Shown here one piece after another: positions 20,231 to 56,904 of a stretch of DNA of 64,000 nt. The stretch covers positions 105,090,001 to 105,154,000 of the forward strand of contig JANJGN010000021.1 in the NCBI GenBank assembly GCA_026770705.1, given 5' to 3'. The notes under the pieces are model-generated. The model was given only the letters and a program-made list of their open reading frames with translations. It ran no database searches and was not told the origin of the DNA. Each line of letters starts with the position of its first letter. Position 1 is the stretch's first letter. This stretch comes from Isurus oxyrinchus. Its lineage: Eukaryota. The translations under genes and the position numbers were made by a program.

Positions 20231-20233
20231 TAC

Positions 20234-22028: not shown

Positions 22029-22256
22029 TTACACCAACAGTTTTTCCATCTCAGTTGGAGGTCTCTTTGGCGCCCGTTTTTGATTCCTTATTTCACTACG
22101 TGGTCCCACGGCCGCATACACAACGGTGTCTTCGTCCCTTTGAGACGTCCGTGAGGGAGCACCCGCGCTTTGACCTTTCCTGTGATTCTCCGTACGATTC
22201 GTTTTGGATTTCACTACGCGCAGGTCAGCGTAAACAACATTGTTCGATGCACCTCC
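22029..22256 (-). CDS. gene A terminal exon with two ITIMs
   Basis: GGASNNVVYADLRVVKSK...DEDTVVYAAVGPR...LLV*; pyrimidine tract with an atypical GAG acceptor; overlaps ORF 22029..22214. Confidence 0.72.
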   Translation of the reverse strand, partial: GGASNNVVYADLRVVKSKTNRTENHRKGQSAGAPSRTSQRDEDTVVYAAVGPRSEIRNQKRAPKRPPTEMEKLLV

Positions 22257-28200: not shown

Positions 28201-31200
28201 AACCAATTCAAGCTCCGTAGAATTATCATTCAGAAGATTGGGTGGTGAAGCTAATCTGCGGCCTTAACTCGCGCCTTCATCTAAACTGAGATCTCGCCCC
28301 TGAATTTCATCGTGTGTAATTCTAGCGTGGCTTACCATTCTTACCTGTTCTTCCTCTCGAGTTCTCGATGTTCTCTCTAGAAAAATGTTTGAGATAAACA
28401 TGTCACATTGATGCGGCGAACAAAGTAAGTGGAATAAATGAATGTTTCACAAATGCATTGAGATTATCTCTGACTAAACAGAAGAAGCCAAAATACAAAT
28501 TCTGTAGTCAGGCTTGAATTCACAACCCTTTAAGGCGCAGGCGAGAGTGCCATCATCTGATTTGCAGGACCTCGAGGTCAATGCTGGCGTAATGACAATT
28601 TTACTGGACTCGTAATCCAGAGGCCCAGGTTATTGCTCTGGGGGCGCGAGTTCAAATGCTACCAAGGCAGCTGGTGGGATTTAAATTCGGGTAATTAATT
28701 CATCTAGAATTGAAAGCCTATCTCAATAATGGTGACCATCAAACCGTCATGGATTGTCACCAAAACTCATGTGGCTCACTAATGTCTTTTGGGGACAGTC
28801 GTTACACAGTGGGGCCTACGTGTGGCCCCAGACGCACAGCAATATGGTTGACTCTTGACTGCCAGCTGAAGTGGCCTAGTACGCCATTCAATTGTACCAC
28901 AGCACTACAGAAAAGGGGATGGACTGTACTCGTTCACCACCATCTTCCAGGGACAATTAGGATGGGCAACAAATGCCGGCCTTAGCAGAGATACTCACAC
29001 CCCACGAAAGGATTTTATATATAAAGAAAGAAAATACTATTGCATCCTGATGCTTACTATGGAGTAATGGTTTATTCTCTACTTTTTAGCTTTAAAGGCA
29101 TCAAGGCGTTTCATTGTCTATGTCACAGACCTTGGGCTTCCTGCTTAACTGGAACACCAACAGTGAATTTATAACTTTATGTCCAATTATACAACACATT
29201 TGTAAACTAATTGGTTGATACTGATTTTGAAGTTAGTCTGAAAGGTTCGCACGGCTGTCAGCTCCTGTTTAATTCGAAATCGAGCGGCTGTCTCTGCCGA
29301 CCATTAATCAATGGTATCACTTTGGCCTCCGAGTAAGAAGGTTGTGAGCTCCAGCCCTAATCCACAACTGTGTGCATAGAATCAAGCCCCACTCCACAGC
29401 TTCGAACTTAGAACCAAGCCCCAGCTCCCAAATTTGAACACAAAATCTGATAGTGCAGAAGGAGTGCTGCAGAGTCGGAGGTGCTGTGACTCAGGTGAGA
29501 GGTGAATCGGAGTCTAGGCTTGCCGTCTTACCCGAGGAGCTTTTACTCTGAATGCAAACGATCACTCACCAATACCCCGCGGACGAGCAGGGGAGTTCTT
29601 CCTAGTATCGCAACCAACATTGTTCCCTGAGGCAAGAAATCGTAAATAAATTACCTGATTATTATCACATTTCTGTTTTTAAGGACTTGCCGACATTTTT
29701 TTATAGCGTTTTAAAACTAGTTGGTTGAAAGTTGCCATGTGAGGTCACCAGCTCCTGAAACGTGCTGTACGTGATTGTGTAGCTGGCAGAGTACCAGGCC
29801 ATTTGGCCTGAAATGAGACAAGCTCTCTCTTTCTTTCTGACAATGATGCATTCAATGCCTAGCAGCGCTTCGTGCATTTCAATCTAAAGCTATGTGTAAC
29901 CCCCAAAATATTTGTTCACCTATCGCCACCATGATATATGTAATAGTTACCTTGATGCTTGCAGCGACGCCAGGTGATAAGAACTGCGGTTAGCAGCAGC
30001 GATACAATGACCACCAACAGTGAAGAGAAAATGACCAAGATGTGCTGTGCAGTAGTTCTGTCGTGTACAGCTGTAGAATATAAAACGATTACTATTAGTG
30101 ACATCCTAGGTTTTTTTGTCAATGCAGCGCCAAATGTTTGGGTCATTGTAAGATCATTTTTTAAAATAAATTAAGTATTTAGCTTCCCTTTCAACTACTT
30201 TAATTTGCTGGGGCTCTTTTGCGTTTTGCGGAGTTATGTAAGATCATATGAATAAGTTTACATGAGAGTGCGTGTCCTGTAGTAAAATGGCGGCATCAAC
30301 TCTGATTCAATTACCTTGGAATAATCGAGGATGCTACCTGGCGAATTAGCTGCGACAGAGGTTATAAACGCATGCACATGCATTGATTTTAAGATGTACC
30401 CATGGGTGAATAGTTTCGTTTGCACGCATATTTACATATCATCATCAAGCCAAGGTTGCACATTTAGTGATAACAGGCTAAATAAAACAGCGAAGTCTCC
30501 TAAAGATTGACCAGTCTGAACAAGAACAATAATAATAAATAACATTTCTTTCATTTTTTGACACAGAGTCAATGAAGGAAAAAATAAGGATAGATGGCCA
30601 GAAGCTTGATCAAAGAGCTTTGTTTTTACAAGCAGTTTAAGCGAAAAGAGAGAGAAGAAGGGAGATTGAGGTAGGGAATTCCAGACCCAAGCACCTTGGC
30701 AGATTGTGCAGGGCTGCCAATAGTGAACGGTTAAAATCGGAAGGCCAGAGTTGCAAGAGGATATATATCGCAGAGGGCTACAGGGCTGGAAGGGTGAATA
30801 CAGATAGGGAGGGAGGAAGACATGGAGGAATTTAAATATAAGTACGAGGATTTTAAAGTTCTAATGTGTGGATGCAAATGAAGTGTAACAAGCGGAGGAA
30901 TGATTAGTGAATGAGATTGTGAGCGAGTTCAGTTACGAACAGTAGATTTTTTGAATAAACACAAGATTACGTAGGATTGAAACATGTAACGAATCGGGAT
31001 AGTCAAATCTAGAGATAACGAAGGCATGGATGAGGATTAGCATTAGACCCAGGGGTACCCGGGAGGTGGAAATAGACAATCATGGTGATGGTACGAATGT
31101 GTAGTTGGAAACCCAACTCGGGGTCAAATAATGCACCAAGGTTGCGAAATGTCTTACTCAGTTTAAGATAATTATCGCCAATGGAGGCGGTGGACATCAA

Positions 31201-34061
31201 AGGAATTGTATTGCGGGGCCCGAAGACGATGGCTTCAGTCTTCACAATGTTTGGTTGCAGGAAATAGCTGCTCATCCAGTTTGAAGAATTAGAAAAAAAT
31301 GCATGGGCCCCGGGGGAGGTGATGATGAGTGTCAATGGCATACATCTGGAACGTACTGCTGTGTTTTCGAGTAATCTCATCGAATTCATGTTCAAGAGAA
31401 GAAAGAAAGTCGGGGACATTTAATTTAATTAAAGAACAGCTAGGCTATATTTTCTATGTATGGTAAATCCTAACAAGCGTGTAAAAATGACAATCCGACC
31501 AGAAAAATACAAAATATCAAATAGAATGAAATATGGTGAATCAATTTACACATTTAATCATGTGTTTCTGGTTAATAGAAAATGAAGTTTGCATTTTACG
31601 CTTTTATGGAGTACGTGTTAAGCAGATTATTTAAGTATAGAATTTAATAAACGGGCATTAATCTCCAGGGATTCGATTTGTATAAATCTTCTTTATAACC
31701 CTTATCTGAGAGTTATCGAGTGGATGTTGGAGGGATAAGTAGTTGAATGTTTTGTTGAAAAGAATTAATGCAAAGAAGGACAGATATTAGCACAATAGAA
31801 CCGTACCTTCTACTGTTACCTGTGTGCCCATCCCGGTTCCTTTGCCAAACTGAAATGATTCTATTTCACAATAATATATCCCTGAATCATTCTGGCTTGC
31901 GTCCATGACTGTAATTTGATTCCGTCTTAAAGATATTTGATTTTCCTCCAAGACTCTACCAATAAATTCTCCAGATTTGTTCATAACTTTACAGCTTTCA
32001 TCACCCAATACTTCCTTGTACCACGCGACGGCAAACAGTGCTGTCGTTTCAGGTGTAGTAAATGTGCAGGAGATTTGAAACTCCTCTCCTTCTGTTATTT
32101 TGATAACCCGTGGGCTTTGAGTTACTTTGATATCGGCAGCAGCAACAGCTGAAAGACAGATAAGCCAATTACTCTCGTTAGACAAATCTACTCCGCATTT
32201 CAATCTACCTGTCCTGATAACTCGCAAATAACTCAGATGCGGCTAATGGCGAACTCAAACAAGGAACCCCTATTTGAATCCCCTGATTTTCAGTGGCAAC
32301 ATGACTATCGAATCTCCTACCATCAGCCTTTTTGCTGTCACCGCTTCTTTCTCCCCTTGCAGCCTTTAACGCTGAACTGAAATTTCGTAATCACATTCAA
32401 ATTCTTGAGATCTCCACAAACAGGTTCAGCTATAGCTAATTCTATTCACTACACATGTTATGAAGAAATTGCTGAAGGTCCTGAATAGATCAAAGGCGAT
32501 GGGACTTGATAACATTCAGGCTCTGGCGCTGATGACTGATGCTCCAGAACTAACCGTACCACAGGAATGGAGGAATTAGGAGCAGGAGGAGGCTATTTTA
32601 CCCCTCGAGCGTGCTCCGCCATTCGATAAGATCATGGCTGATCCACCTGCGCTCCACGTTACCTGCCTGCCGTCCCCATAAGTCCTCAGTGATCAAAGAT
32701 CTGTGTAGCTCAGCCTTCAACAGATTCAATTACCTAGTCCCCACTTCTCACTTGGGAAGAAAATTCTCCAGCATACCGACCCTCTAAGATAAAAAAAAAT
32801 CTCCTCACCTACGGACTTAAATTGGAGACCCATATATTTTAAATTGTGTCCCCTGGTTCTAGACTCGCCCACAAATTGAAAGGTCCTCTCTGCATCAACC
32901 ATGTCGAGGCCCCTCAGAATCTTATGTCTTTCAATAAGAGGGCCTCTCATTGTTTTAAAATCCAATGGGTGTAGGCCCTTTTCCAAAGATACCTTTAAGC
33001 CAAACTGTGCAAGTATAGCTACGAAACTGTCATCAATCCGGCTCTGTGGAAATTGACTGCCTAAGGCCTGTCCACAAGAAGTGAGACAAATGTAATCCAG
33101 CTAATTACAGGCCCAATACACTACTCTCAATCATCAGTAAATCGGCTGCAGTTACATCATTGAACATTGATATAAAGGAGCATTTAATCAGCATGAACCT
33201 TCTCAACGTTCAGGCTTGGGCTGCTAACTGACAAGTGACCTTCACAACACACAATTGATTAGCTAAATCCAAAAAGAGAGAATCGTCCAAAAAGAGAGAA
33301 TCTAACCATCCCCACTTAACATCCAACGGCGTTATCAACACTAACTAACCCATAACAACACCCCGGATGATATTGTGGACCAAAGATCTAACTGGATGCC
33401 CCACAAAGGTCAAAGTTTTGGATTTCTGAGGTGCACAACTCACCCGCTGTCTCACAAAAGTCTGTCCAACATCTGCAACGCACAAGTTTGGATGGAGCAA
33501 ATCCCACTTGCCTAAATGAGTGCTGCTTCAACATCACTCAGGACGATTGGCATCACCCAGGACAAAGCAGCCCGCTTGATGGGCACACCATCAACCAGCT
33601 TAAACATTCAGCCACTCTACCACTGGTGGGCAGTGTCAGCAGTGTGTACTATCTACAAGATGCACTACAGCTACTCTCCAAGCCTCCTTCTACAGCACCT
33701 TCCAAACCCTGCGACGCCTACCACCTCAAGAGAAAGAGCAGCAGAGGCATGGTAACACTAGCACCTACACATTTACCTTGAAGTTATACACCAACCTGAC
33801 TTAGAATAATATATCCATCCCATCATGTCTCTGCGTGGAGTACTTGGAACTCCCTTCTAACAGCACTATGGTGTACCTCTACTACTAGGGCTGCAGCAAT
33901 CCAAGAAGGTGGTTCGCCACCACTTTTTCAAGCACAATTAGTGTGCAATGCTCCCTTGCCAGTGATGCCCACACCCCATTAACGAATATAAATATTTGCT
34001 TCAAATAAATTAAAGGCTTACCAGAAATCAGCAGGACACCGAGTATCATATCTGGATACAT
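22029..34061 (-). CDS. NCR3: NKp30/NCR3-like V-type Ig receptor, inhibitory form (gene A); join 34022-34061, 31807-32148, 29951-30070, 28345-28376, 22029-22256; ~253 aa
   Basis: All exons have GT-AG ends and compatible phases (1,1,1,0), giving an open 762-nt CDS: leader MYPDMILGVLLISAVAAA, V domain, uncharged TM, and a tail with VVYADL and VVYAAV. The V domain resembles NKp30 as I recall it (V.N...EF.GR; CEIESFQFGKGTGMGTQVTVE vs CRVEVLGLGVGTGNGTRLVVE). The symbol means NCR3-like; orthology is not tested. Confidence 0.75.
25690..26110 (-). mobile_element. old Penelope-like RT fragment
   Basis: Reverse complement resembles 18380-18760 (MDVQSL, LLLT.LNMFS, WYIDNF). Confidence 0.6.
27565..27870 (-). 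mobile_element. CR1-type LINE 3' end
   Basis: RNFFAQRVANLWNSL (ORF 27658..27873) and CR1 3' UTR. Confidence 0.8.
28345..28376 (-). CDS. gene A exon 4, short cytoplasmic exon (ERTSRTREEEQ)
   Basis: Acceptor catttttctag, donor CAG|GTAAGA (a second in-frame donor lies 9 nt on); converts phase 1 to phase 0 as the ITIM exon requires. Confidence 0.6.
29310..29775 (+). mobile_element. Deu-domain SINE (SacSINE1/AmnSINE1-like), decayed
   Basis: ggagtgctgcagagtcggaggtgctgtgactcaggtgagagg resembles the Deu core as I recall it; related minus-strand copies at ~34850-35240 and ~52655-53000. Confidence 0.55.
29951..30070 (-). CDS. gene A exon 3, stalk plus uncharged transmembrane helix
   Basis: Acceptor ttttatattctacag, donor G|GTAACT; AVHDRTTAQH-ILVIFSSLLVVIVSLLLTAVLITW-RRCKHQ with a basic stop-transfer. 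Confidence 0.85.
30560..31420 (-). mobile_element. old L2-like LINE fragment in the gene A V-TM intron (paralogue at ~46320-47210)
   Basis: NWMSSYFLQPNIVKTEAIVFG, RNLGALFDPELGF in ORF 31009..31419. Confidence 0.65.
31807..32148 (-). CDS. gene A exon 2, Ig V-set (VJ-type) domain
   Basis: Acceptor tctgtctttcag, donor G|GTACGG, 342 nt; canonical C...W...DSGIYYC and GxGTxVxV G strand. Confidence 0.93.
32565..32980 (-). mobile_element. CR1-type LINE 3' fragment
   Basis: KILRGLD, ESRTRGHNLK in ORF 32726..32986. Confidence 0.75.
34022..34061 (-). CDS. gene A exon 1, signal peptide (MYPDMILGVLLIS)
   Basis: ATG at 34061, 40 nt, phase-1 donor G|GTAAG; paralogous exon at 51765-51804. Confidence 0.8.
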
Positions 34062-35677
34062 GTTTCTGCTTTTGTCTGTGAAGGCAATCAGGAAGAAGAG
34101 ATTTACAAAGGCAATTTCAATTGTTGTGTAATTTTGCAGCTTTCAGTGAAAGTTCTTCCCACCTGACACTTCAGCTACTTCAATTGAAGCTGGTCGCTGA
34201 TTTGTGTACAGGTTTTTTTTTACCTATGTGGAGGAAATATTCCGCTGTGTTCCTCTACTCGTCCACCATACATCGTTCGTATGTTGATTTGTCTTCCTCA
34301 GAAAGCAGCTGATTATGGTCATTGAATTTATTCAAGGCAGAGTTAGCCAGGTTTTTGATAGACAGTGAAGTCAAGGGTTATGGAGGGGTAGATGGCAAAG
34401 TGGAGTTGAGACAACAACGAGTTCAGCCATGATCTTATTGAATGACAGAGTAGGCTCGAAGGCCTATTCCTGCTCCTACATCCTATATTTATATGCTTGG
34501 TTAAATGGGCGGGCGTTACAAATGTAATTGATGACTGCCAGGGGATTCAGATATGGACGGTGTGCTTTTAGCAGTGAGAACCATTTTCACTGCAATATCC
34601 ACCTTTCGTTATCTCCCCTTCTGAACTGGATTATTCTGCACTAGGACACCACAGTAAAATTATTTTTTCTTTTCTATTCTTTACAGTTGATGCGCTTTTC
34701 AATTCATTTTTGCTTAAGTTATCACTGACTCCATTAAAACAATATTCATTAATATACCTTATATTGTTAAATTAAATAGCAGCATTTATCATCGCAAAGA
34801 TGAAGCTGAACATGAGCACTGATTAAGAGCAGGCGGCATAACAGTCAAAAGAAAGCTTGTATTTCTTAGCACCTTTTTAGGCCAGGGAAGTTCTCAAAGG
34901 GCGTTACAGCCAATGAAATACGTTTGAAGTGCAGCCAGTTTTGCAATTTAGAAAACGCACCAGTGTGACCATAACAAAATAATGTGTTGTGGACTGAGTG
35001 ATAAATATTGGCCAGGACACCAGGAATAGCTCCCACTTCTCTCCTTCGGAAACTGTCAGGGAATTTCTTAAATTAACCTGATCGGGCGGATAAGTCCTCA
35101 GTTTAGCCACTCATTCACACAATGGCACCTCAGAAAACACAGCACACACTCGTTACTGCCTTAGAGTGTTAACATTGACTTTTGCAATCAAGTGGGGCTT
35201 CAGCCCATCATCTTCTCGTTCAGCAGGGAAAGCGCTGAAAACGAAGGTACACATCACCTGCGCTGAATGTTCAGTTCGAGTGACTTCAGTAGAACTGACT
35301 ATCAGGCAAGCTGTACACTGGTGGACAAGAGTAGTTGCGTGTGCTCTGTGACCACCAGATTGCTTGTTGTACTCGTTTAGTGTAGATTCTGGTCCAAGGA
35401 CGGATCAGAGAGGAATGGTGAGATGAACTCAAAACCGAACACGGAGCGCCCAGCAGGTTGACCAATCTCTTGTAGGTTAAGTTTTAACAGCGGTCTAAAA
35501 TATAGTAGCAAGGCTGGAAAAGTGGAAAGGTTTCAGAAGGGAATTCCAAAGACAGAGACCAAGGCAACAGAAACTGTGCCCTAATGCTGGGTTGAAGGCA
35601 TATGGTGGTGCGGCAGATGCAGAGTAGACCAGAGGCAGGGGAATGATGGGATAACCATGTAGAGCTGAAGGGGTGAC

Positions 35678-38338
35678 AATGTGGTACTGGACTATGGACA
35701 GATTTAGAGATAAGGAGTCGAATTTCCAACTCGGCTCATTGGCGAATCGAAAGTCAATGCAAGCCGTTCTTACCTGGTCTGGCCTACATGTGGATCGAGA
35801 CCCACAGCAATGTGGTGACTCTTAACTGTCCTCTGAAATGGCCTAGCAAGCCACTCCGTTCAAGGAAAATTAGGGATGGGCAACAAATGCTGTTCTTGTC
35901 AGCGACACCCACATCTCCTGAATGCATGAAAGATTTCGAACTTCCATTTCTCGATAATGGTTTTCCTATTTTACCAATTAGCACAATCGAACATTAAGCA
36001 GATAAATTCTGAACATGACCGGTGCTTTAATAAAGGGAAGAGCTAGAGAAAAAATGCACTTACTTTTATGTGTTTAGCGAAGCGTATTATTTGCAGAGTT
36101 TCTCCTGGTCTGTGCTGTAGCAAAATTATTTACAGAATGCAATCGGGCAGCTTGATGTTTTACAGCATTGAAAGAGGCTTGTCAGCATTTCCTTGAAGAG
36201 CAAGAAAAGAGGATGAGAAACGGAGGATGGTATCTTATGCAGGCTACATAACGCTATATGAAAGGTCACTGAACATATGAACGTGGGAAACGATTCCCAT
36301 GTAGTTCTTAAGCAAATTTCAAGCAATGCATGATACTTATTTTTGGTAAATGTGAAATAAGATGTTTCATTCCTGTCATTGTAAAGTACGTACGCAGTTC
36401 ACTTTTTAAGTGGAGAAACAATACAGAATGAAACTCTTATTTAAGTCACAACCTTCAAATGTTTGCTAATAAGCTGTTGCAATTTCATGGCTTCGGTAAA
36501 AAATCGATTTATGAAATACTAGTGAAATGATCAAAATAACCAGACACTTAATCCGAAACTTAAGTTACCACAGAAGCAAAGATTGCGAGAATCCTTAAAT
36601 TTCAGTATAAGTTGAGCAGTGATATTTAAGGAAGTGGTTAAACTTTAAACCTCACCCTTTACCAACATGCGAATGTAAAAGCAGGAGCAGCCCATTCAGC
36701 CCCTCGAGTCTGATCTGTCATCGAATAATGTGGTACTGGACTATGGACAGATTTAGAGATAGGGAGTCGAATTTCCAACTTGGCGCATTGGCGAATCAAA
36801 AGCCAATGCAAGCCGTTCTTACCTGGTCTGGCCTACATGTGGATCGAGACCCACAGCAATGTTGGTGACTCTTAACTGTCCTCTGAAATGGCCTAGCAAG
36901 CCACTCCGTTCAAGGAAAATTAGGGATGGGCAACAAATGCTGTTCTTATCAGCGACACCCACATCTCCTGAATGCATGAAAGATTTCGAACTTCCATTTC
37001 TCGATAATGTTTTTCCTATTTTACCAATTAGCACAATCGAACATTAAGCAGATAAATTCTGAACATGACCGGTGCTTTAATAAAGGGCAGAGCTATAGAA
37101 AAAATCCATTTACTTTCACATGTTTAGCGAAGCGTATTATTTGCAGAGTTTCTCCTGGTCTGTGCTGTAGCAAAATTATTTACAGAATGCAATCGGGAAG
37201 CTTGATGTTTTACAGCATTGAAAGAGGCTTGTCAGCATTTCCTTGAAGAACAAGAAAAGAGGATGTGAAACTGAGGATGGTATCTTATGCAGGCTACGTA
37301 TCTCTATATGAAAGGTCACTGAACATATGAACGTGGGAAACGATTTCCATGTAGTTCTTAAGCATATTTCAAGCAATGCATGATACTTATTTTTGGTAAA
37401 TGTGAAATAAGATGTTTCATTCCTGTCATTGTAAGGTATGTACGCAGTTCACTTTTTAAGTGGAGAAACAATACAGAATGACACTCTTATTTAAGTCACA
37501 ACCTTCAAATGTTTGCTAATAAGCTGTTGCAATTTCATGGCTTCGGTAAAAAATCGATTTATGAAATACTAGTGAAATGATCAAAATAACCAGACACTTA
37601 ATCCGAAACTTAAGTTACCACAGAAGCAAAGATTGCGAGAATCCTTAAATTTCAGTATAAGTTGAGCAGTGATATTTAAGGAAGTGGTTAAACTTTAAAC
37701 CTCACCCTTTACCAACATGCGAATGTAAAAGCAGGAGCAGCCCATTCAGCCCCTCGAGTCTGATCTGTCATCGAATAATGTGGTACTGGGCTATGGACAG
37801 ATTTAGAGATAGGGAGTCGAATTTCCAACTTGGCTCATTGGCGAATCGAAAGCCAATGCAAGCCGTTCTTACTCGTTCTGGCCTACATGTGGATCGAGAT
37901 CCACAGCAATGTGGGTGACTCTTAACTATCCTCTGAAATGGTCTAGCAAACCACTCCGTTCAAGGAAAATTAGGGATGGGCAACAAATGCTGTTCTTGTC
38001 AGCGACACCCATATCTCCTGAATGCATGAAAGATTTCGAACTTCCATTTCTCGATAATGTTTTTCCTATTTTACCAATTAGCACAATCGAACATTAAGCA
38101 GATAAATTCTGAACATGACCGGTGCTTTAATAAAGAGCAGAGCTATAGAAAAAATCCACTTACTTTCACGTGTTTAGCGAAGCGTATTATTTGCAGAGTT
38201 TCTCCTGGGCTGTGCTGTAGCAAAATTATTTACAGAATGCAATCGGGAAGCTTGATGTTTTACAGCATTGAAAGAGGCTTGTCAGCATTTCCTTGAAGAA
38301 CAAGAAAAGAGGATGAAAAACTGAGGATGGTATCTTAT
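35678..38338. repeat. tandem duplication, period ~1050 bp, ~2.5 copies
   Basis: Units start aatgtggtactgg at 35678, 36727 and 37777; near-identical copies. Confidence 0.95.
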
Positions 38339-39349
38339 CGAATAAGATCATGGATGATTTGATTGTGGCCTCGGCTCCACTTTCCACCCAACCCCGATGG
38401 CTTTTGTCTCCCCTGATAGTCAAGAATCTATCTATCTCTGCCTTAAAAATACTCACTGACCCCCACCTCCACCGCTCTCTGGAGGAGAGAGTTACAAATA
38501 CTCAGGGCCCTCCAAGAGAAAAAGACTTCTCACCCATGTCTTAAACGGGAGACCCTTTATTTTAAACTGTGCTCCCCTAACTCTCGTCTCTCATACAAGA
38601 GGGAACATCCCTTCAGTCTCCATCCTGTCGGGTTCCCTCAGGATCTTATATGTTTCAATAAGATCACCTCCATTCTTCTAAATTACAATGGATAGAATTC
38701 CATTGTCCCATCCCTACGTTCAGAAGGGTTTGTTGCTGCTTCCCATGTGACTTACCATCAGACCCACGGAAAGTCCCGTTCACTCATCCACAGCCCCACC
38801 GAAGAACAGCGGCATAACGGTTCCTTTATGAATGTGTTGGTCACTTTTTTGGAAATCTATGGCGGTGACTGTCGCGTCGCACATAGATCTTGGGAACTGG
38901 ATGTGTACTTGAATTATAACATGGTTGATTTGCACGGGAAGTTAGCATTATAAAGGCGAAATAAATTGATGCAACTCACCCTAAAGTGATGTACCCACCC
39001 CCACCCCGCAACCGTTCTTACTAAATGAAAACACCAATAAAGATGCCCGTGTATCTTAGGTGTGCATGCTCGTGCAGGAATAAGTAGTACCGCATTCACT
39101 TTTATGCACGGGGTTTAGAGAGCAGAGAACAGTGTAGGTTGCAGATTGAAGCACTAGGCTCTAGGTCGAATCGCACCATGATAACTATGGATTATCTTTA
39201 TACAGAATTTTGAGAGAACAATGTGTCAAGTACACGTTAGTCTTCTAACAAGAAGCTTGGTTGCATATCTTGGAACCTACGAGGCCATTCAATATTGCAG
39301 GCCAATTATAATTGCTACGTTATCTATTTTAGGAGTTCATGTCTGACAA

Positions 39350-39905
39350 CGGTAGGAACTCGCCTCCTGACTCCCCAAAGACTGTCCACCATCTACTAGG
39401 TATAAGTCAGGAGTGTGATGGAATGCTCCTCACTTGCCTGGATGAGCGCCGCTCCCACAACACTCAAGAAGCTTGACAGCGTCCAGGACAAAACAGCCTG
39501 CTTGATTGGTACCCTATCTATAAACGTTCACTCCCTCCACCGCCGACGTACAGCAGCAGCGGAGTGTACGATTTACGAGATGCACTGCACGAATTCACCT
39601 TGGCTCCTTAGACAGCACCTTCCAAACCCACGACCGCTACCATCTAGAAGGACAAGGGCAGCAGATAGATGGGAACACCATCACCTGGAAGTTCCTTCCA
39701 AATCGCTCACCACACTCATGTGGGAACATATTGCCATCCCTTCACTGTGGCTGGGTCAAAATCCTGGAACACTCCCCCTAACAGCACCGTGGATATACCT
39801 ACACCACGTGGACTACAGTGGTTCAAGAAGGCATCCCACCACTACCTTCTCAAGGGCAACTACGTATGGGCAATAAGTGCTGGTCCATCTCGTAAATGAA
39901 TTTTA
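39350..39905 (+). mobile_element. CR1-clade LINE 3' end (second family; donor of the SINE tail)
   Basis: ORF 39415..39876 (MECSSLAWMSAAPTTLKKLDSVQDK); tail caagggcaac...gggcaataagtgctgg; older relatives at ~33000-33985 and ~49500-51730. Confidence 0.75.
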
Positions 39906-42543
39906 AAAATAACCACTCCTTTCACACCACCACTATTCTGACTGACCTGTTGTAACAATTTTTGAGGCAGCGATAAACATTGACATGTCACGCGCTTCAG
40001 TCCATCTTATCCTTTGCTCTCTGCATAATTATTCCTTTATTTCTACCACCAGAACAGATGTTATGTGTTTCTAATAAATTCCTAATGGCGAGATAAATAT
40101 GCTGAAAGGACCAATAACAATAACGCGATTATACATGCGCAATCTGATCCTATTATCTAATGTCCTTTCATTCCGCTTCCCCTTAAAACAATAAATGTGG
40201 CCGACTCCATTTTCATCTTTTGTTTTAATATTTTGTTATCGACTATAAAATCCAGGAAATGCATTCGCGGTTGGAAATCGCCTGGGTGCCATATGAATGG
40301 CCAGTGGACTAAAGGGCGGAGGGAAGTGATGTCATGGAGGTGGAAGGAAGGAATCGCCATGATAAAGTGGATATTTGTGTCCGAGGCTCAAGGCTAGGTA
40401 ACGTAGGATGCCTTGGTTGAGAGTAATCTGGTGGGGGACCTCAGAGGCAGTGAGAAAAGGGTTTTTCTTTCACATTCCCGTCTCAGTTTCTATTCACGTG
40501 ACACTTCAGCGTATTCCTTTGTCAAAACTTGCTTTCAAACAAAGCGGGAAACACCATTGCAGCCGCACAGGTTACTGAACAAGTTGATGTGTATTATTTG
40601 ACATTACATACAAATTGCATGAAGAATCAGGGCAACTACTCGGAACAAGATGAAATATTGCCTGCAACTTTCTCAGATCCATCACTATTAAACTAAAATG
40701 GAAATCACATTCTAATTCGTGGATCAAGGTTAAGTTGGGGAATTTAGCTATTAGATACCCACTAAACATGCCAAAACATATAGTTTTATATTCAACTGTA
40801 AGTGATTTTTTTTTGATTGTGATAAGTCTTAATTACTGCCACAGAACTCCCCTACACTGAGAATTTTAGTTTTCCAATTGTGGGGTCTGATTCCTTCAGG
40901 GTTTGGTTATTGTTGACTATGCCTGCAAAAGTATTGTTTCTTCGTTTTTCTCTCGTTGTCTCTTAATTTCATCTGTCACTTAGTTTCGCTTTCTGTATCT
41001 GTTATGGCATTGGACTAAATATCGCTTTTTACACTTTCTGTTTCAGGTCCTTTGTGTCTCAGTAAAGATTCTTTACAATTGCTTGATTAAAAGATACACA
41101 ATTGCTTTCCCTGTTCACAGAGGTGCCATATCCCTAGCCACGCACAGAGAAAAAACTGGAATCACTTTAAGCAGCCATGTTGAAGAACTTTCTTCACAAG
41201 TCCCGAGCAGAAAGGGCAGCCGAGAGGCCAGCTTATAATGTGCTACACTTCTGTAAATGGAACTGCTGCTGTTTTCAACTGATACTTACTGCATGTTCGA
41301 GTGGAAAGCCCTGTAAAATGCTTGAGGACAAGCCCAAGTGCGCTATTGTTTCAGGACTGATCTCAAAATCCGTGGCGTTTAATTCATGCTCAAGAAATAA
41401 TATATATTGATTTAATTTTTTTAACATTGAATATTAATTACATGAAGGTTCATTGAAAATTCTAGGAGGAAATCGGAACATTACTCTAGGTTGATTACAA
41501 TTAACTCATGTTGACCAGAACTATAATTGGTTGATAAACGTCAGCTTGTAATGTCTAATTTATACGTGTGTAGTTTCTGCAAGGGCTTATTATGCATAGC
41601 CGTGGTTTGTGGGACCGGGGGTGGGGATGGTAGGAAGGGGTGGTGGGGTGTTGGCGGTGGGGAATTGCAAGTTTAAAATATCTGCTCAAGTTAAGTTAGA
41701 GAACATTTTGATCAATTTGTCAGAGGGACACAGATTGTGAAATGGCAAGGCCGCCAATTTTGCAGAAACCGCGACATGCACCAGAACCCAAAACGGTGAT
41801 TCATTTTGTATCAACTGGACTTCTCCAAAATGTAGTTTTAATACCCTTTAAGCAAATTGATGAAGCGGCATGACATAAAACCAAAACTGTTGAGGGGGCT
41901 TTCCTGAGTGCAGTGCTACATTGCACCCAATGACTGCCTTTTCTTAACAGCTACTTACTTTTAAATGCTTAAGGGCTTACAGCGAAGATCATAAGAAGTG
42001 GTGGACTGGACCCCGCAAACTTGCCATGTAGCCACATGAAAGAAGATTAACCAATAAGTCACAGGTGGCGTATTTTGAACAACGCTCATCTTTCTCAAAG
42101 GATAATAAAATCAGAACAATGAGGTGATGTTTAAACCAGCTGTTGTGCAATCTTGCAACATTAGGTTGGCTTACGATTAGGCTGCTTTACGCTGACTGTT
42201 CTTCTGAATTCTGGTTCAATAAAAATATGCACTACAAACAATAAACAGCTGCTAAAGTTTTTTTAGATCTTCGTGGGCTAGGCTGACTTTGAAAGGGGCT
42301 GATTGTCGATATCTGTTGCTAGGCCTAACGCAAAAATGATCACCAGCCACAGACCCAGGGACATTTTTTCAGATATGTAGGTATAGAAGCTGCTTCCAGG
42401 AGGTACGATTAATACTCTTTCAGTTGTTGATATTTACAGCTGCAAATTCAGCTAGTTTAAAAGGCAAAAAGTTGTCTTGTCGATCAGAACTGAAAAATTT
42501 ATTAGACGGATTTGATAGTAACGAAGTTGCAGTACTGGATCGG

Positions 42544-43455
42544 TGTTATGAAGTGGCAGATGATGTGTGCCTGATGGACAAACCCCCAAGGGAAACTGGG
42601 TCGCGCTATCACAACCGTTTTGTAATTGGTATTTATTACGAGAAGATTTGCCCACTGAATTCCGAAGTAATGAGCCCACCAAGACCGTTAGAGATATCAA
42701 AAAATGAAATTAAAGCATTTATTAACAAAATAAAAGACTTCAAGTACATACACAAGACTACAATTACTTATTACAATAACAAATCCTGAATTCCCAATTT
42801 ACCTGACTCCCAGTTACATTTTAAGGCAACAGCCCAAAACAAAACCTGCAAGTAACACAATATCTACTTAACAGTGGAAATCCAAATGGCTTCCCCAGCT
42901 TCAGTTACCTTGCATAGCAGACTTAGGCACAAGTGGCCAGAGGCTTCTTGAAGGCTGTTTCACACACTCTTGTTAGATCTTACACGGCCCTCTCCTCACA
43001 TAGCCTTTGTTCCTCGTGTAAATATGTTTATTTATCTTTAATATTTAAATTCTATTGTTCCATATGTCTTTGAAACTCTTGCTCATAATACAAAATCTTT
43101 AATGTTGCCAAAATTGTCAGTAACCTTTGGGAAAAATAAACAGACTTCTCAGCCTTGTTTATCTGGCTAATTGTAAACAGATGAGCATGCCTTTGAAATC
43201 CAAACAATCCCTTCATTTACCTAAAAAAAATGAAAATTCCCTTCGCACCTTACATTCTAAGCCGGCATCCATGTTTACTCATACATATTTCAAGCACATT
43301 TCTGCACCTAGCTTCTTTTGATAATTCCAAGCTTGCAATCTACTTAATTCCAAATGTAATTAAATAACACCGATAGACCCAACTATGGTCGCCCCATAAA
43401 CCTATTTTACAATAAACCAGTAAAATATTATGAAAGTTATTAAACTTTCGTCACA
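42544..43455 (-). mobile_element. solo LTR, same family as 20234-21724
   Basis: tgttatgaa ... ttcgtcaca ends; absent from the paralogous site at ~62650; no clear TSD. Confidence 0.7.
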
Positions 43456-45124
43456 GCAGTGACCCAGACATCACAAGTTCTCTATTCCAACAGGGAAACG
43501 TTAAAATTGGAAAGAATAAATCAGGCAATTTCCGTGCTGGTATAGGGAAATAAAGAGTATGACCGTTTTCACATTGCTGTAAAAACGCACAAGGACGGGT
43601 AAACAGCTATAATTCCTCAACCTGGCCTCAGTGTGACGCGGACCCTACTTGAGTAGCAACAAAAGATAACACATATTTCATATAATGCCCTCGGGTGAAC
43701 TCGGGTTGCAAGAAAGATGCAAATTCGCCGGCGTTGGCCACGTCCCAGGAACAAATGCAAACATTTTCAGAAGATGATGTGCATCTGAAACATTCATTGA
43801 TTCAAACTTCTTCGCAACCACATTGTTTATTTAATTGATTTTGAAAATGTCGATAGATTGACAGATGGATGGATGGATAAGTGGCAGCAGATTCTAATTT
43901 GTGATGACAAGAACATGAACTAGGTAAGAATAATTCGTAACATGGTGGCAAAGAAATATTTAAAAAGAATAATAGTAAGGATAAAGCAATGAAATAATTT
44001 CACTATTATAATAATTTCAGCAGGCAAATAAACTACAATACGTTGCAAAATACAGATCTCCTTAATTTACAGAATATAAATGAACGTTCTACATAAAACG
44101 GCATTTTATTTAATGTTCATAGCTGATACATTGCCAGAATGAATTGACTTGAGTTTTCAGCCTTTGCCTGAGACTACAAATCTTAAACTTTTACATAGAT
44201 TTGCTCAGAAACGCTTGTAACTCATAATATTCGTCAGAATCAGGCTTTTACAATATTGCTCAAGTCAATATCGGTTACTTATGTCTTGCTTAGCTTGGAT
44301 TGATGCTGCTGATTGTTGTGCGCATGCGCGCCTTTGTGTTGTCGACATAGCATTTACCTTACTTTGAAGGGGTTTGTCAGCAGCGTCCTCTTCAAAAGTC
44401 AAAATCATCAGAGGGAGAGAGTAACGGCCAAAAACGCTTACAAGGCGTAAAATTAAAATTCTCCGTTTCAGACGTGTTACCGTGATTCGAGTTTCAGGGA
44501 AGCATTTGCCATTAAATTGTTTCCCCACGAAGCAGACACCTTCACCATGCTGCGCAATAGAATAGCAGTTTGAACTGCAGAGGTGCATGCATGTAAATTA
44601 TGTAGCACATATTTATTTTTAAGAGTTATGAAAGATGCAACTCAGTAAGTGACCGCTTACAGTGATAACTGCTCTACTTGTGCGTTCACAGTGGTTTTCT
44701 GTTCTTAGGCCATTGATGTTACATGCCTCTTGTCACCAGTTCCTGTCTCCGCTAGAAAAAAAGACGATATGGTATAAATATCTTAGCATGTGTTGACGTC
44801 AGTTTTGCTGTTTTAGTACTTAATAGTTAAAACTATTCAAAGTGGGAACCTGGGACATACCAAATTTACCATAACTGCAGCTTTCAATGAACGAGTTTAA
44901 TTACTACAATATCACCGAATGTAATGTTTTGACAGTAAAACGTTCCAATATAAAAGCGCAAGAAGATAACGGGGGACATATAAACTTACCGGAACACAAG
45001 TGACTTTACGACATACTATGCACTATTTTTGAGTTTGCATTTGACAACTGGAATCATTCCACAGAAAATTTCACTTAATAATCAGCAGCCAATACAAGCT
45101 GTCCAAAATGCCAGTCGGCTTAGT

Positions 45125-45330
45125 TTAACGTTTTACCATGGAACACGAGCCGGCTGGATCGGCTTCCTCTCGCCCTGAGGTGAATGCCATAGGAGAACTT
45201 CGAGATTCGCAGAAATATACGAGAAAAATTGTTATCGTGATAATAACGGCAAACACTGCAAATTTCACTCCCATCACCATCAGCTGCCAAAGCAGCGAAT
45301 GCCCGCTGACACTACCGAATTCCATCACAC
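45125..45330 (-). CDS. gene B exon 3, Lys-containing TM plus short cytoplasmic tail
   Basis: Acceptor ctgtctctttctccatag, in phase with the V exon; matches ORF 45125..45328. Confidence 0.8.
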
Positions 45331-48300
45331 CTATGGAGAAAGAGACAGCTCAATTTAGCAATGACTTTATTTAGTTCACTCCAGCAGTGCATCGCAATAA
45401 TCACCAAGTGCGTTACTTATTCCCTTGTGCAGTCGGGCAGACAGATTGTTCCGATTAGGTACCTGCGCATTCGGAGTGGTATTCTAGACATCTAACTTTG
45501 TACTAATGATTCGTCTCGAGTCCTTCTTGTTCGTCTTGGATTCTGGCGTTGATTTTCTATCTTATTTCTCAATCGCTTACCCACCCCTTTAGTATGTGAT
45601 AATCCAAAGCATTGAGCAAAGTTTGCTTCTGGTGAAGAAAGGTTATTGAAATTATGAGCTTTATAAGATTAATATATTTTGGGACAGTAGCTTTAAGCTT
45701 CACGTAAATGATGGGGCTATGTGACCCATTCTGCAATCTGCCTGAAATTAGGCCTGCGTGGTTTGATTGTTAGAGTTCAAATGAAGGCTTAGGTTGTTTT
45801 AATGAGTATAAGGTACAAGGTATTTACGCTTGGAGCCAATATCTCTGAGTTAACAATGAATGGACTCTGAGTCCCCCAAAGTCCCAGAAAGGTATTGAAG
45901 GCACCAGGTTGTGTTCTGTACCGTCCATTTGCCTCTAAGGTGAAAGGGACTTGACGCCAAAAATAGCTAATTATCATTTCTCACTAGTTACAGGCTAATA
46001 TGTTTCATGGTCCCAAGGGAAAAGGGGCAGAGAAACCATTTTGAAACCAGTTTAAAGGCTCCCCTTCAAATCATTGGATATCACAGACAGATGGCAGTTC
46101 CGTGTGGTCAACAAGCTGAAGAGGCTGCTTGGCTTTGTGAGATAGTGAAGCCGGATAAAGGAGGGAGACGATCACTGGCCGAAGAGATGATTCTTGTCGC
46201 CTAGATATGGGCATTCGAAGTTTCTTTGGGGTTGGGCAGCATTGGAAGCTGGGAGCAACTGTGGACTGCTTCCTGAAAGGGCTGTAATTCTGTGAGGTGG
46301 TTCTAACAAGTGACTTATGAGAAAAGAGAGAAAGGTGGAGATGTTGGCGGAGGGAATTCCGGATCCTGGGACCTTGGCAGATGAAGGCACGACTGCCAGT
46401 ATGGAACAATTAAAATCAGGATGCCAGTGTTGCAGGAGGGCAGCAATAGCAGAGCGCTCCAGGGTTAGAGGGGTTAGTATTGATAGGGAGAGGGAGAGCC
46501 TTGGCAGAACTTGAATTCACGGATGAGTGTTTTTTTAAATAGAGGCATTATCGGACAGAGCGCCAATGAAGGTTAGCAAGCAGATGAGTGATTAGTAAAT
46601 GAGATTGTGAGGGAGTTAAGCTATGAAGAGGAGAGGTTCTTTTTTTGGATGAACACAGGATTATGTAGAATGAAAGATGAAATGAGTTGGTATAGTTAAA
46701 CCGAGAGATAACGAAGGCATGGGCGAAGATTGCAGTAGCAGAAATACTAAGGTAGATTTCGAGCCGAGGGATATAAAGGAGGTGGAAATATTCAATCATG
46801 GTGATGGTGCCAATGTCTAGTTAGAAGCCTAAGCCGGGGTCAAACAAAGCACCACGGCTGCGAAATGTCTTGCTCAGTTTAAGGCAATTACCGCCAGTGG
46901 GCATAAAGGCGGGGAACGGGGGTGGGGGGGGGGGGGGGGGGGGGGGGGGGTGGGGGGGGGGGGGCGGGGAAGGAGGAGGGGAGGGGGGGGTGGGTGGGAT
47001 TGGCCGAAGGCGATGGCTTCAGTCTTACCAATGTTTAAATGCAGGAAATTTCTGTTCACCCAGTTTGAAGAACTGGAAACAATGGTAAGACTCAAGGAAG
47101 TAATGGTGAGATTCAAATGACAGTTATCGGCATGCATGTCGAACCTATTGTTGTTTTTGCGGATGACCTCGCCGAATTCAGATTCACGAGAGGAACAGAC
47201 TGAGAGAGAGTTCATTTACCTAAATAATAGCCGAGCCAATATATAAATACAGGGTAAATTCTAGGAAGTGTGTAGAAATGGATAATCCGCTCCGAAAAGT
47301 CCAAACTCCAAAATGTCAAATAGATTCAAATCCGATAAATCAATTTACACATTTTATCATATGTTCCTGGTTATTAAAGAATTAAGTATGAAGTTTACGT
47401 TTTAACGGAGTACATATTAAGCAGATTATTTAGCCACAGAATGTATTAAATGCGCATTACTTTCCAGGGATTCGAAATTTGTAAACCCTCTTTATAACCC
47501 TTATCTGAGAGTAATCGAGTGGATGTTGGAGGGATAAGTAGTTGGGAGTTTTATCGAAAAGAATAAATGCAAAGAAGGACAGGTGTTAGCACAATAGAAA
47601 CGTACCTTCTACTGTTACCTGTGTGCCCGTTCCGGTTCCTTTGCCAAACTGAATTGATTCTATTTCACAATAATATATCCCAGAATCATTCTGTCTTGCG
47701 TCCATGACTGTAATTTGATTCCGTCTTAAAGATATTTGATTTTCCTCCAAGACTCTACCAATAAATTCTCCAGATTTGTTCATAGCTTTACAGCTTTCAT
47801 AACCCAATACTTCCTTGTACCACGCGACGGCAAACAGTGCTGTCGTTTCAGGTGTAGTAAATGTGCAGGAGATTTGAAACTCCTCTCCTTCTGTTATTTT
47901 GATAACATGTGGGCTTTGAGTTACTTTGATATCGGCAGCAGCAACAGCTGAAAGACAGAGAAGCCAATTACTCTCGTTAGACAAATCTACTCCGCATTTC
48001 AATCTACCTGTCCTGATAACTTGCAAATAACTCAGATGCGGCTAATGGCGAATGCAAAGGGCGAATCCCCAGCTACATCCCCTGCATTTCAATGGCAACA
48101 TGGCTATCGAATTTTCTACCACCAACCTTTTTGCTGTCACTTTCTTCACTTGCAGACTTTAACACAGAACAGCAACGTCGCGGGAACAGCGTCACATCCA
48201 TGTTCTCGTCCAAATAGCAGGTTATATATTGCGTCCTTTGACCCTCGCTGAGTCAATTTGCTTGTAAAACGTCAAGGTTCGCAGTTGTTCGCAGTGAAGT

Positions 48301-51300
48301 TCCGGCACTGCTTTACCCGTTCAAAGAACAAAGAACAACGAAAAGCATAGCATAGGAACAGGCCCTTCAGCCCGCTAAGCCTGCGCCGATCATATTGCCT
48401 GTCAAACTAAAACATTTTGCACTACCGGGGTCCGAACCCCTCTATTCCCATTCTATTCATGTATTTGTCAAGCTGCTTCTTAAACACCACTATCGTACCT
48501 GCTTCTACACCTCCTCTGGCAGTGAATTCCAGACACTCACTACGCTCTGCTTAAAAAACTTGCCCCGCACATCTCCTCTATAGTTTTCTCCTCTCACCTT
48601 AAATCTATGTCCCCTAGTAATTGACTCTTCCACTCTGGGAAGAAGCTTCTGACTATCTCCTCTGTCTATGCCACTCATAATTTTGTAAACTTCTTTCAAG
48701 TCGCCCCTCAATCTCCGTCGTTCTAGTGAGAACAATCCGAGTTTCTCCAACCTCTCCTCATAGCTAATAACCTCCAGACCAGGCAGCATCCTGGTAAACC
48801 TCCTCTGCACTCTCTCCAACACCTCCATATCCTTCTGGTAATGTAGGGACCAGAATTGCATGCAATATTCCAAATGTGGCCTAACCAAGGCTCTATACAG
48901 CTGCAGCAGGACTTCCCAACCTTTATACTCAATAACCCTGCCAATGAAGCTTCTGACTACCTTATCTACATGCGTTGCCACTTTCAGTGACCTGTGGACC
49001 TGTACACCCAGATCCCTCTGCCCGTCGATGAACTTAAGGGTTCTGTCATTTAACTGTATAATTCCTGCCTGTATTGGACCTTCCAAAATGCATTACCTCG
49101 CATTTGTCCAGATTAAACTGCATCTGCCATTTCTCCGCCCAAATCTCCAACCGATCTATATCCCGTTGTATCCTTTGACAATCCTCTTCACTATCTGCAA
49201 CTCCTCCAACGTTTGTGTCGTCTGCAAATTTACTAATTAGCCCAGTTACATTTTCCTCCAAATCATTTATGTGTACTACAAACAGCAAAGGTCCCAGCAC
49301 TGATCCCTGTGGAACTCCACTAGTCACAGCTCTCCATTCAGAAAAGCACCCATCCATGATCTTGAGCAAATAGTACGTTATATATTGAGTCCTTTGACCC
49401 TCGCTGAGCCAATTTACTTGTAAAACGTCAACGATCGCAGTTGTTCACAGAGAAGTTCCGGCACTGCTTTACCCATTCAAAGAAGACTATAGGAGAACAT
49501 GCCAAGATTATCATCAGACAAATTTAAAGAGGAGGCGCCAATCTGGTGAAGACAGTACAAGGGAGTGCATGCAAGCTAAATAACGGAAGCAACATAGTGT
49601 AAATAGCCATAAGGTATCCAAAACCAATGGATTAGATAAAATCTCGGCAGCGCTGCCAAATCCACAAGAAACTGCGGGTCGAGGCTCTACAACTATTCCT
49701 ATTATAAATGATGGAGAGTTCCGCCCATCAGCGCAACAGTTAGGATTGAAACGTTTGCAACCACCTCCGCCCAGAAATGTGAAGCGGCTGTTCTGTCTGA
49801 GACCCCTCCTGAGGTCCCCGCCGTCACAAACGCAAGTCTTCAGCCAGTTCGATTCACGTGATATCATGAAATGGCTGGAAGCACTAGATGCGGCAACAGC
49901 CATGGGATCTTCTGCTTGCTGTTGTGCTGATGATTTATGCTCCCGATCCAACCATGTCTCGAGCCAACCTGTGCTAGTGCAGCCACAAAACTGGCATCCA
50001 CCCGACCCTATGGAAGCTGTATTCCTGAAACCTGTCTGTGGAAAGAAGGACAATTGCAGTCCAACTAATCAACACCCCAACATTCTACTCTCAATCATCA
50101 GCAAATAGATGAAAGATACACCATTCAGCAGTGTTATCAAGCAGCCGAATCAGCAACACGCTTCTCAATTTAGGTTTCATCTGGACCAGTTGGCTCCAGA
50201 CATCATTACAACCTTTGTCCAAATAAGGTCAAAAGAGTTTAGTTCCAGTGGTGAGGTACGAGAATTTGCCCTTGATATCAGGTCAGTATTTAACCGAGCG
50301 TGACAACAGGGAACCCTGGCAATATTGAAGTAAACGGGAATCGGGGTTGGGGGTGTGGGTAGGGGGGAAACTCTCCACTGTATGGTGCCATGTCGACCTC
50401 AAAGCAAGATTGCGGTGGTTGTTGGTCTCACGGTAGAGGATGTTCCTCTACCCACTGACTGCCCACTATTCGTTTCCAATCCAAACCTAGCAGATAACAA
50501 AGCAAACCGTGTCAGTATGCATGAAGGCCTGGCCAATATTACTACTTGGGCTGAGAAATGACAATTAACATTCACGCCACAGAAGTGCTTGGCAATGCCC
50601 ATCTCCAAAAAGAGAGAATCTAAACATCTTTCCTTAACATTCAACAACATTACCGTTGAATCCCCTAACAAAAACTTCCTGATGGTTATAATTGACCAGA
50701 GATTTAACTGAGCGAGCTACATAAAGGTTGTGGCTACAAGAGCAGGTCAAAGTCCGGGAACTCTGAGGTATCCAACCTACTTCTTGACTCTTGACTGTTC
50801 AACATCTGCAATGCACAAGTCAGCACATTGATAGGATTCCCGCTCCTTGCCTACATGACTTCAGTCCCAACAGGGTTCAGATGTTTGGCATCCCCTGGGA
50901 AAAGGCATCCTGCTTTATCACCATAGATAAAAGCAAAAAACTGTGGATGCTGAAAATCCGAAACAAAAACAAAAATACCTGGAAAAACTCAGCAGTTCTG
51001 ACAGCATCTGTGGAGAGGGCTAGTTAACGTTTTGAGTCCGTATGACTCTTCACCAGAACTAAGGAAAAATAGAAAAGAGCTAAAATATAAGCTGGTTTAA
51101 AGGGGGTGGGACAGGTAGATCTGGATAGAGGGCTAGTGATAGGTGGAGATTGCCAAAAGATGTCATAGACAAAAGGCATCACCATCCCATTGATCACCAT
51201 GCACATTGGGTCCCCCTACACTGGTGCACACTGAAAGCAATGCATACTATCTGCAAGATGCACTGCAGCAACTCTCCAAGCCTCCCTCTACTGCACCTTT

Positions 51301-56900: not shown

Positions 56901-56904
56901 CACA

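Follow-up and report, generated by a model that had tools for sequence, protein, structure and literature searches.

How can two neighbouring genes in an old tandem duplication, with a quarter of the surrounding alignable positions mismatched, carry almost the same ligand-binding exon? This question arises in 64,000 nucleotides of the shark Isurus oxyrinchus (contig JANJGN010000021.1, positions 105,090,001 to 105,154,000), a stretch that we call the window and number from its first letter. It holds two receptor genes, gene 1 and gene 2, which lie on the same strand 15.8 kb apart and whose V domains (V1 and V2) are 95% identical as proteins. We consider that they probably form a tandem pair of the NKp30 family, one predicted to be inhibitory and the other activating, whose V exons have been kept alike by repeated gene conversion.

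An island of near-identity in duplicated DNA

Self-comparison of the window showed an old tandem duplication carrying a single island of near-identity. The V exons (32148-31807 and 47947-47606, minus strand, with AG/GT ends) differ at 9 of 342 nucleotides, which gives six amino-acid differences between V1 and V2 (R/H13, D/Y49, V/A54, S/R84, F/I98 and M/T106). In intron 1, positions 32149-32253 have 2 mismatches in 105, against 25/118 in the adjoining 32254-32377, and the leader exons are mismatched at 8 of 40 nucleotides. On the other side of the exon, the shoulder in intron 2 (31690-31806) has 10 mismatches in 117. Taken together, the tract core (31807-32253) holds 11 mismatches in 447 columns and the whole tract (31690-32253) 21 in 564, while 1680 of 6681 aligned columns beyond it are mismatched (25.2%). 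This background was measured on 12 colinear blocks (7245 ungapped columns) of 28, the dropped blocks being off-diagonal or tandem-repeat duplicates, and it is a lower bound since alignable DNA alone was counted. An earlier note on this DNA had reported the counts for the V exons, the six residues, about 105 bp of intron 1, the end at 32253/48052 and the leaders, all of which were reproduced. It had also described the flanks as more diverged than the V exon, and identity is indeed not uniform over the duplicon.

A maximum-likelihood change-point fit placed the tract at exactly 31690-32253, with three segments best by the Bayesian information criterion (BIC). Among 10,000 shuffles, the fewest mismatches over 447 columns were 63, as against the 11 observed, and identical runs grew to 71 at most, as against 105. 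The intron part alone departs from the background with a binomial p of 4e-11, and 2.5 of 74 synonymous sites differ between V1 and V2. The source assembly holds two copies of the tract DNA only. The intron 2 shoulder may be a separate older tract (Fisher p 0.005, on post-hoc boundaries), but the BIC favours one tract (861 vs 864).

Receptor types and family

The translations predict opposite signalling parts for the two genes, with ITIM-like motifs (ITIM, immunoreceptor tyrosine-based inhibitory motif) in one partner and a charged membrane residue without an ITIM in the other. The ITIM consensus is V/I/L/S-x-Y-x-x-L/V; ITIM-like motifs mean inhibition, and a charged membrane residue means adaptor-coupled activation. 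Gene 1 has six exons with intact open reading frames of 253 or 272 amino acids, and its uncharged membrane segment and two ITIM-like motifs predict an inhibitory-type receptor. Gene 2 has four exons and 202 amino acids in all, and its membrane lysine and tail without tyrosine predict an activating-type receptor. A contig of 746 nt from run X15 contains V2 exon-exact, and its loose ends match leader 2 (29/30) and the lysine-bearing transmembrane (TM) exon (28/30). In a related species, organism B, transcript contigs of both gene types occur in run X20. Runs X15 and X20 are RNA by guess, backed by exon-exact ends, as no listed run is recorded as RNA. No joint from V to the gene 1 TM exon was seen in the X15 contigs, a blank that is no evidence on gene 1 expression.

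The 342-nt exon holds V and J parts in one germline exon, with both cysteines, the tryptophan and the G strand, and the structure model of the domain has a predicted local distance difference test (pLDDT) score of 90.8. Human NCR3 was the best single-domain PDB sequence match (E 2e-8/3e-9), and Foldseek ranked human NKp30 first by a thin margin over VNARs. The closest proteins are from Carcharodon (P0001, named 'NCR3-like' by NCBI; 87%) and Cetorhinus (77-81%). Matches to major histocompatibility complex (MHC) class I lie on the window's contig in 24 of 25 cases, the nearest 4.8 Mb away. Passages of PMC12227049 and PMC10751288 describe MHC linkage as expected of NCR3, and a passage of PMC12227049 gives eight NCR3 accessions for the nurse shark. 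Because of the VJ-type single V exon, the PDB match to NKp30 and the MHC linkage, the pair is, on sequence grounds, assigned to MHC-linked shark NCR3/NKp30-like receptors.

Grouping by species and by locus

Five 'isoforms' of one Cetorhinus locus (P0003 and P0008-P0011; LOC144695678) hold two different V exons, three of them with a gene-2-type leader and two with a gene-1-type leader. One of the gene-2-leader types also has an N-terminal piece found only upstream of gene 2 in the window. When V1 and V2 were compared with the two Cetorhinus V domains, 17 sites grouped by species and none by locus, whereas in the leaders three sites grouped by locus and none by species. A protein-level tree (LG+G4) of 12 rows, namely the window pair and 10 shark proteins picked as its closest relatives, with three lamniform sources, joined V1 with V2 at 94/94 and the Cetorhinus pair at 100/97. 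In approximately unbiased (AU) tests, a tree that united the gene-1-type V domains was rejected (p 0.0002); one that united V1 and its Carcharodon orthologue was rejected too, but weakly (p 0.036). Identity is 95% within the Cetorhinus V pair and within the window pair, higher than the 87% between orthologous V exons.

The earlier note had proposed gene conversion between paired receptors and a comparison of V and leader trees across sharks. With neutral sites homogenised, V grouping by species and leaders grouping by locus, the result came out for conversion, and homogenisation of the V region by gene conversion between gene 1 and gene 2 is a supported reading of these sequences.

In three of the Cetorhinus isoforms (X1, X2 and X4), a gene-2-type leader and V are followed by the inhibitory tail. 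Two genes may have been mis-merged in the model, or the transcripts may be genuine products of read-through or fusion; a SIGLEC14/5 fusion is known. As a warning for annotation, near-identical V exons likely led RefSeq to merge two Cetorhinus genes into one locus. No annotated activating partner in lamniforms, Carcharodon included, appeared among the 5, 6 and 2 matches of three word-based protein searches (62-2000 amino acids), which is weak evidence.

Age of the tract

Organism B was seen as contigs of a short-read assembly (Logan), which drop variants. In the flank of gene 1, 44 of 1834 letters (2.4%) separate it from the window, one tenth of the paralogue distance. Boundary contigs of both its genes were found: the gene 1 contig departs from gene 2 at the same base, 48052, and both 3' boundary contigs start at 31693. 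Within the tract, the paralogue-specific letters 47600 and 48022 are identical in the window and organism B; being common to both species, they have therefore stayed unconverted since the split. On the other hand, both window copies have K16 and I25, where both organism B boundary contigs and both Cetorhinus types have E and L (organism B depth for these letters 32.6/32.6 at 47900 and 46.2/46.2 at 47873), and A36 and Q109 show the same pattern relative to P0001 and Cetorhinus.

The shared tract ends together with the shared derived residues thus suggest that the outer tract is old and that shorter conversions recurred inside it. We read the tract as old, with only patches inside the exon appearing to post-date the split from organism B. 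The conversion had been called recent in the earlier note; this stands for the patches, but not for the tract as a whole, whose ends and letters 47600 and 48022 are shared with organism B and whose neutral divergence is 2.5% vs 2.4%. Compared with the other lamniform V domains, the unique states at the six paralogue differences are D49, S84, F98 and M106 in gene 1 and H13 and A54 in gene 2, too few for calling the direction of conversion.

Variation and selection in the V domain

V1 differs from organism B gene 1 at 16 of 265 non-synonymous sites, vs 44/1834 flank sites (p 0.002); 14 of the 16 come from the contig table and 2 from P0001, whose V equals the contig at all listed sites. The same comparison for V2 gave p 0.02. 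At the amino-acid level, 15 of 113 positions of V differ, vs 7 of 126 of TM and tail as entered (6 on recount; p 0.03). Between gene 1 and Cetorhinus, V is 80% identical, vs 37/40 amino acids in TM and 66/75 in the tail. The B7-H6 contact residues of human NKp30 were taken from Table II of PMC3135353. In the alignment to human NKp30, F/I98 corresponds to Leu113 and codons 37-40 to Ile50-Val53, on the B7-H6 contact face. The six selection tests were picked after the data had been seen. V appears to evolve faster between species than the flanking DNA, and selection for change is suggested, not decisive.

The V domain is also variable within samples. Sample S1 holds at least three V haplotypes at 47770-47885, at the summed depth of two loci, and within 103 nt one of them differs at 8 letters and has a 3-nt gap, vs 3/1845 in the flank. 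A divergent V haplotype of run X1, over 47770-47885, carries T41, Q45, I46 and the ancestral C49 and has its 3-nt gap near codons 35-37; the source assembly yielded no donor for this haplotype. Run X21 gave 4 reads on V in 100 of the run read, too few for phasing. Codon 49 (32002/47801) belongs to a C49-x-x-C52 motif in Carcharodon, Cetorhinus and two catshark proteins and encodes D and Y in the window copies, a loss that would leave C52 unpaired in both. In organism B (run X7, 47743-47745), one V copy or allele has a one-codon deletion at E67/E68, the position of human Ser82 on the B7-H6 contact face.

Origin of gene 2

The TM exon, last exon and 3' region of gene 2 (43493-45615) are colinear with a further gene, gene 3, with 25-28% mismatch. 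Gene 3 lies just outside the window; its V domain (L003) has only 38% protein identity to the pair, and its TM exon bears a lysine. The leader side of gene 2 is as distant from gene 1 as its 3' side is from gene 3, and the gene 1-like and gene 3-like homologies meet at a gap of about 700 bp in gene 2 intron 2 (Table 1). Because the front of gene 2 matches gene 1 and its back matches gene 3 at equal distance, we think it quite likely, judging from this one genome, that gene 2 is a hybrid in which unequal crossover joined an inhibitory-lineage front to an activating-lineage back. Neither this hybrid origin nor the receptor family had been named in the earlier note. No dead V exon was found beside gene 2 in 45331-47600 (best E 0.68). 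The Scyliorhinus torazame protein P0015 has a similar lysine segment with a gene-1-type V, 63-66% alike to two listed paralogues. The hybrid may be older than the mackerel sharks, without homogenisation in S. torazame.

Table 1. Positions in the window of the predicted exons, the homogenised tract and the duplicated unit
Feature	Position	Strand	Basis
Gene 1 leader exon	34022..34061	-	tblastn with Carcharodon P0001; GT donor, in frame
Gene 1 V exon, single VJ-type V-set domain	31807..32148	-	Pfam V-set E 7e-12; 87% to P0001; splice sites
Gene 1 transmembrane exon, membrane segment without charged residue	29951..30070	-	38/40 amino acids as in P0001; translation
Gene 1 optional cytoplasmic exon, 57 nt	29570..29626	-	matches insert of P0007/P0010; frame kept with or without it
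Gene 1 short cytoplasmic exon	28345..28376	-	tblastn and splice sites
Gene 1 last coding exon, two ITIM-like motifs (VVYADL, VVYAAV)	22029..22256	-	71/75 amino acids as in P0001
Gene 2 upstream ATG piece	52660..52683	-	matches N-terminus of Cetorhinus P0010; gene 1 counterpart without ATG
Gene 2 leader exon	51765..51804	-	RNA contig of run X15 extends into leader, 29/30 letters
Gene 2 V exon	47606..47947	-	Pfam V-set E 1e-11; covered by one RNA contig with 1 other letter
Gene 2 transmembrane exon, lysine in membrane segment	45137..45330	-	translation; X15 and X20 RNA contigs splice V to it
Gene 2 last coding exon, short tail without tyrosine	44719..44751	-	predicted from splice sites alone, no read across junction
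Homogenised tract, gene 1 copy	31690..32253	.	change-point fit and shuffles
Homogenised tract, gene 2 copy	47489..48052	.	change-point fit; contigs of runs X1 and X7 share end at 48052
First copy of old duplication unit (gene 1 intron 2 to gene 2 intron 2)	30637..45615	.	colinear blocks, 24-28% mismatch
Second copy of unit	46315..64000	.	continues to window-equivalent 65643, past the gene 3 lysine TM exon just outside the window
Inferred crossover junction, gene 2 intron 2	45616..46314	.	gene 3 homology ends at 45615; gene 1 homology starts at 46315

Proposed history and its alternatives

We propose a history in three steps. In an old unequal crossover, intron 2 of the inhibitory gene 1 would have recombined with intron 2 of the upstream activating gene 3, which would have duplicated a unit of 15-19 kb and given gene 2 the promoter, leader and V of the inhibitory type with the TM and tail of the activating type. 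Non-reciprocal exchange would then have re-homogenised the V region, across the entire tract until organism B split off and afterwards patch by patch within the exon of each lineage, with the remainder drifting to 25% mismatch; that V was repeatedly re-homogenised we consider very likely. Finally, V would be selected to change, and conversion would let the activating copy track the inhibitory copy so that both see the same ligand, as expected if a microbe exploits the inhibitory receptor. This last step, selection for change in V with conversion keeping both copies on one ligand, we favour only somewhat.

That conversion is real but neutral, the V exon being the best-conserved part of the duplicon that kept recombining and ligand sharing an unselected by-product, seems unlikely to us, although several observations speak for it. 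The paralogues show no excess of amino-acid change, the later conversions fall within the old tract ends as if high identity fed itself, and the converted exons of SIGLEC11/16 are described in passages of PMC5701461 as being under relaxed constraint. However, V is not conserved between species in the way that TM and tail are, its non-synonymous divergence from organism B exceeds the flank rate, both window genes keep open frames and opposite tails, and organism B transcribes both types. A single exon replacement in the window's lineage, either one conversion or a recent exon duplication, would account for the one sharp end at 32253/48052 and for the one best tract of the change-point fit. Yet organism B has the same ends, which places them before the split, and the window copies share residues that both organism B copies lack; with the near-identical pair that Cetorhinus has of its own, at least two events in this lineage and one in Cetorhinus are needed. 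Barring mis-assigned organism B and Cetorhinus sequences, a single event is thus already contradicted, and we hold it to be very improbable.

An error of assembly or polishing, in which reads of one gene overwrote the V exon of the other, could be read from the collapse of short-read contigs in the exon (X1 depth 25-32 vs 15-17 in the flanks). The collapse itself, however, shows two near-identical copies in the reads, gene-1-specific contigs enter the tract from both sides in X1 and X7, and leader 2, V2 and TM2 stand together in one RNA contig from a different sample. The raw reads of S13 carry both letters at 32108 (4/6 of gene-2 type; 2 starts only), and Cetorhinus repeats the same pattern, so that such an error is hardly credible. 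The island is centred on a coding exon, as purifying selection alone would have it, but intron and synonymous sites (2/105 and 2.5/74) match as well as coding sites do, and V exons are less similar between orthologues than between paralogues. Purifying selection as the sole cause is refuted by the non-coding identity and, in our view, can be given almost no credence.

Several points tell against the history that we prefer, namely an old hybrid with a repeatedly converted V exon that is selected to change. The 94/94 for V1 with V2 is just under the star threshold of the tool. Cetorhinus is known from RefSeq protein models only, in which both V types stand on an inhibitory tail and the locus is set by leader type, and the three S. 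torazame paralogues are 63-66% alike in V without such homogenisation. Conversion and double crossover are indistinguishable here. Of about 179 synonymous and intron sites in the tract, 4.5 differ; this neutral divergence (2.5%) equals the orthologous divergence from organism B (2.4%), so that most of the tract need not have been converted after the split. In sample S1, the exon collapses to double depth, and its letters over 47856-48021 (depth 32.5) and 47632-47799 are those of gene 2. This would imply transfer from gene 2 to gene 1 and conversion still segregating; S1 may be the source of the assembly itself and its contigs drop variants, and it is not counted as independent. Diversifying selection, which the earlier note had suspected from the six amino-acid changes, did not emerge from them: 6.5 of the 9 differences are non-synonymous where 7.0 are expected, and the proportions of differing non-synonymous and synonymous sites (pN 0.025, pS 0.034) give a pN/pS of 0.72. 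A reading of selection from the paralogue pair alone was rejected, as the changes match the neutral expectation. Within the exon, the comparison with organism B is not significant (non-synonymous 16/265 vs synonymous 2/74, p 0.21), and variability among five lamniform V domains at the contact-equivalent positions is merely suggestive (5/9 vs 28/104 others, p 0.08).

Surroundings of the pair

At position 28345, the choice between two GT donors 9 nt apart adds or omits three residues in gene 1, and Carcharodon and Cetorhinus isoforms vary in the same way. Upstream of the gene 1 leader, a tandem repeat of about 1050 bp is present in 2.5 copies at 35678-38338 (96-97% identity), with a single copy at the matching place of gene 2. 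Retroelement-like pairs with reverse-transcriptase-like reading frames lie at 8705-10979 / 17964-20231 and 48322-49354 / 13756-14802 and are 88-89% alike; the copy at 48322 is within gene 2 intron 1, 270 bp past the tract end. Gene 1 lacks a G-rich stretch of about 80 bp that lies in intron 2 of gene 2 (46920-47000).

The other V domains of the cluster are 31-36% identical to those of the pair, apart from L003 as the nearest. Upstream, at 105153001-105203000 of the contig (L011-L015), there are two further NCR3-like genes, gene 3 and gene 4. The TM exon of gene 3 carries the lysine already mentioned; that of gene 4, whose V lies in L009, is uncharged, and the tail of gene 4 has a tyrosine motif. 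Inhibitory and activating types thus alternate in the cluster. L003 and L009 were rejected as donors, having no DNA match to V1 or V2. A second NCR3-like V group (L004-L008 and L010) lies beside MHC class I genes at 100.3-101.0 Mb of the contig and includes recent duplicates: L004 and L006 form an inverted pair with 95% identity, and three V exons spaced by about 2.4 kb are 94-97% identical. We rejected L004/L006 and L005/L008/L010 as V-limited tracts, since they are alike over long flanks and are recent duplicates or overlapping loci.

Comparison with known paired receptors

Fossum et al. (2011, PMC3210942) describe, in the passages concerned, merohomogenization of paired opposing receptors in KLRC/NKG2, KLRI, KLRB, Ly49 and PIR. 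As in the systems of those passages (PMC3210942), homogenisation after speciation is confined to the ligand-binding exon while signalling parts and orthology are kept, and the proof lies in paralogues that are closer than orthologues. Unlike the single VJ-type V of a shark, the receptors treated there are mammalian, lectin-type or multi-Ig, with MHC-type ligands. SIGLEC11/SIGLEC16 (PMC5701461) and SIGLEC5/SIGLEC14 (PMC4042635) are likewise inhibitory and activating neighbours with independent conversions of the binding exons in each lineage. Shared binding and co-expression were tested in those Siglecs, whereas the shark pair is known from sequence; the shark tract, in contrast to the Siglec tracts described, covers one exon and about 220 bp of intron and excludes the leader. 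Xenopus CEACAM and primate CD300A/C (PMC5112662, PMC12447643) are paired Ig-superfamily receptors of other families, one case non-mammalian, that have been discussed in connection with conversion. No report of conversion in shark NCR3 was found from titles and the beginnings of abstracts, the main text on the family (Kinlein et al. 2021) being outside that search; Kinlein 2021, Flajnik 2012 and Ohta and Flajnik 2015, which it did not cover, may already report inhibitory shark NCR3 or conversion. We see in the pair a well-supported case of a known mechanism, in what may be a new family for it (NKp30) and in an old lineage (sharks).

The pair resembles human NKp30 (NCR3) in its single VJ-type V domain, its MHC linkage and its best PDB sequence and fold match. 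In humans a single, activating NKp30 recognises B7-H6 and carries an arginine in the membrane, whereas in the shark an ITIM-bearing and a lysine-bearing gene share one V.

In summary, these observations would extend the concerted evolution of activating and inhibitory pairs from mammals and frogs, where it is documented, to the cartilaginous fish and to NKp30, a natural killer receptor family traceable from sharks to humans. The locus appears to retain both the birth scar of the activating partner, the crossover in intron 2, and the later conversions; since both are legible, the model of an inhibitory receptor first and an activating counter-receptor second becomes testable here. A further-reaching reading is possible, though we regard it as doubtful: instead of a lone activating receptor for a conserved self ligand, shark NKp30 would be a paired on/off arms-race system in which an activating decoy arose by a one-step graft of the inhibitory V exon to an activating tail, conversion would keep the decoy in step, recurring independently in at least three mackerel-shark lineages and still segregating within populations, and selection would act on the B7-H6-contact face. 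If true, it would place Siglec-style paired-receptor dynamics at the base of the jawed vertebrates and would predict a ligand of shark pathogens that mimics B7-H6.

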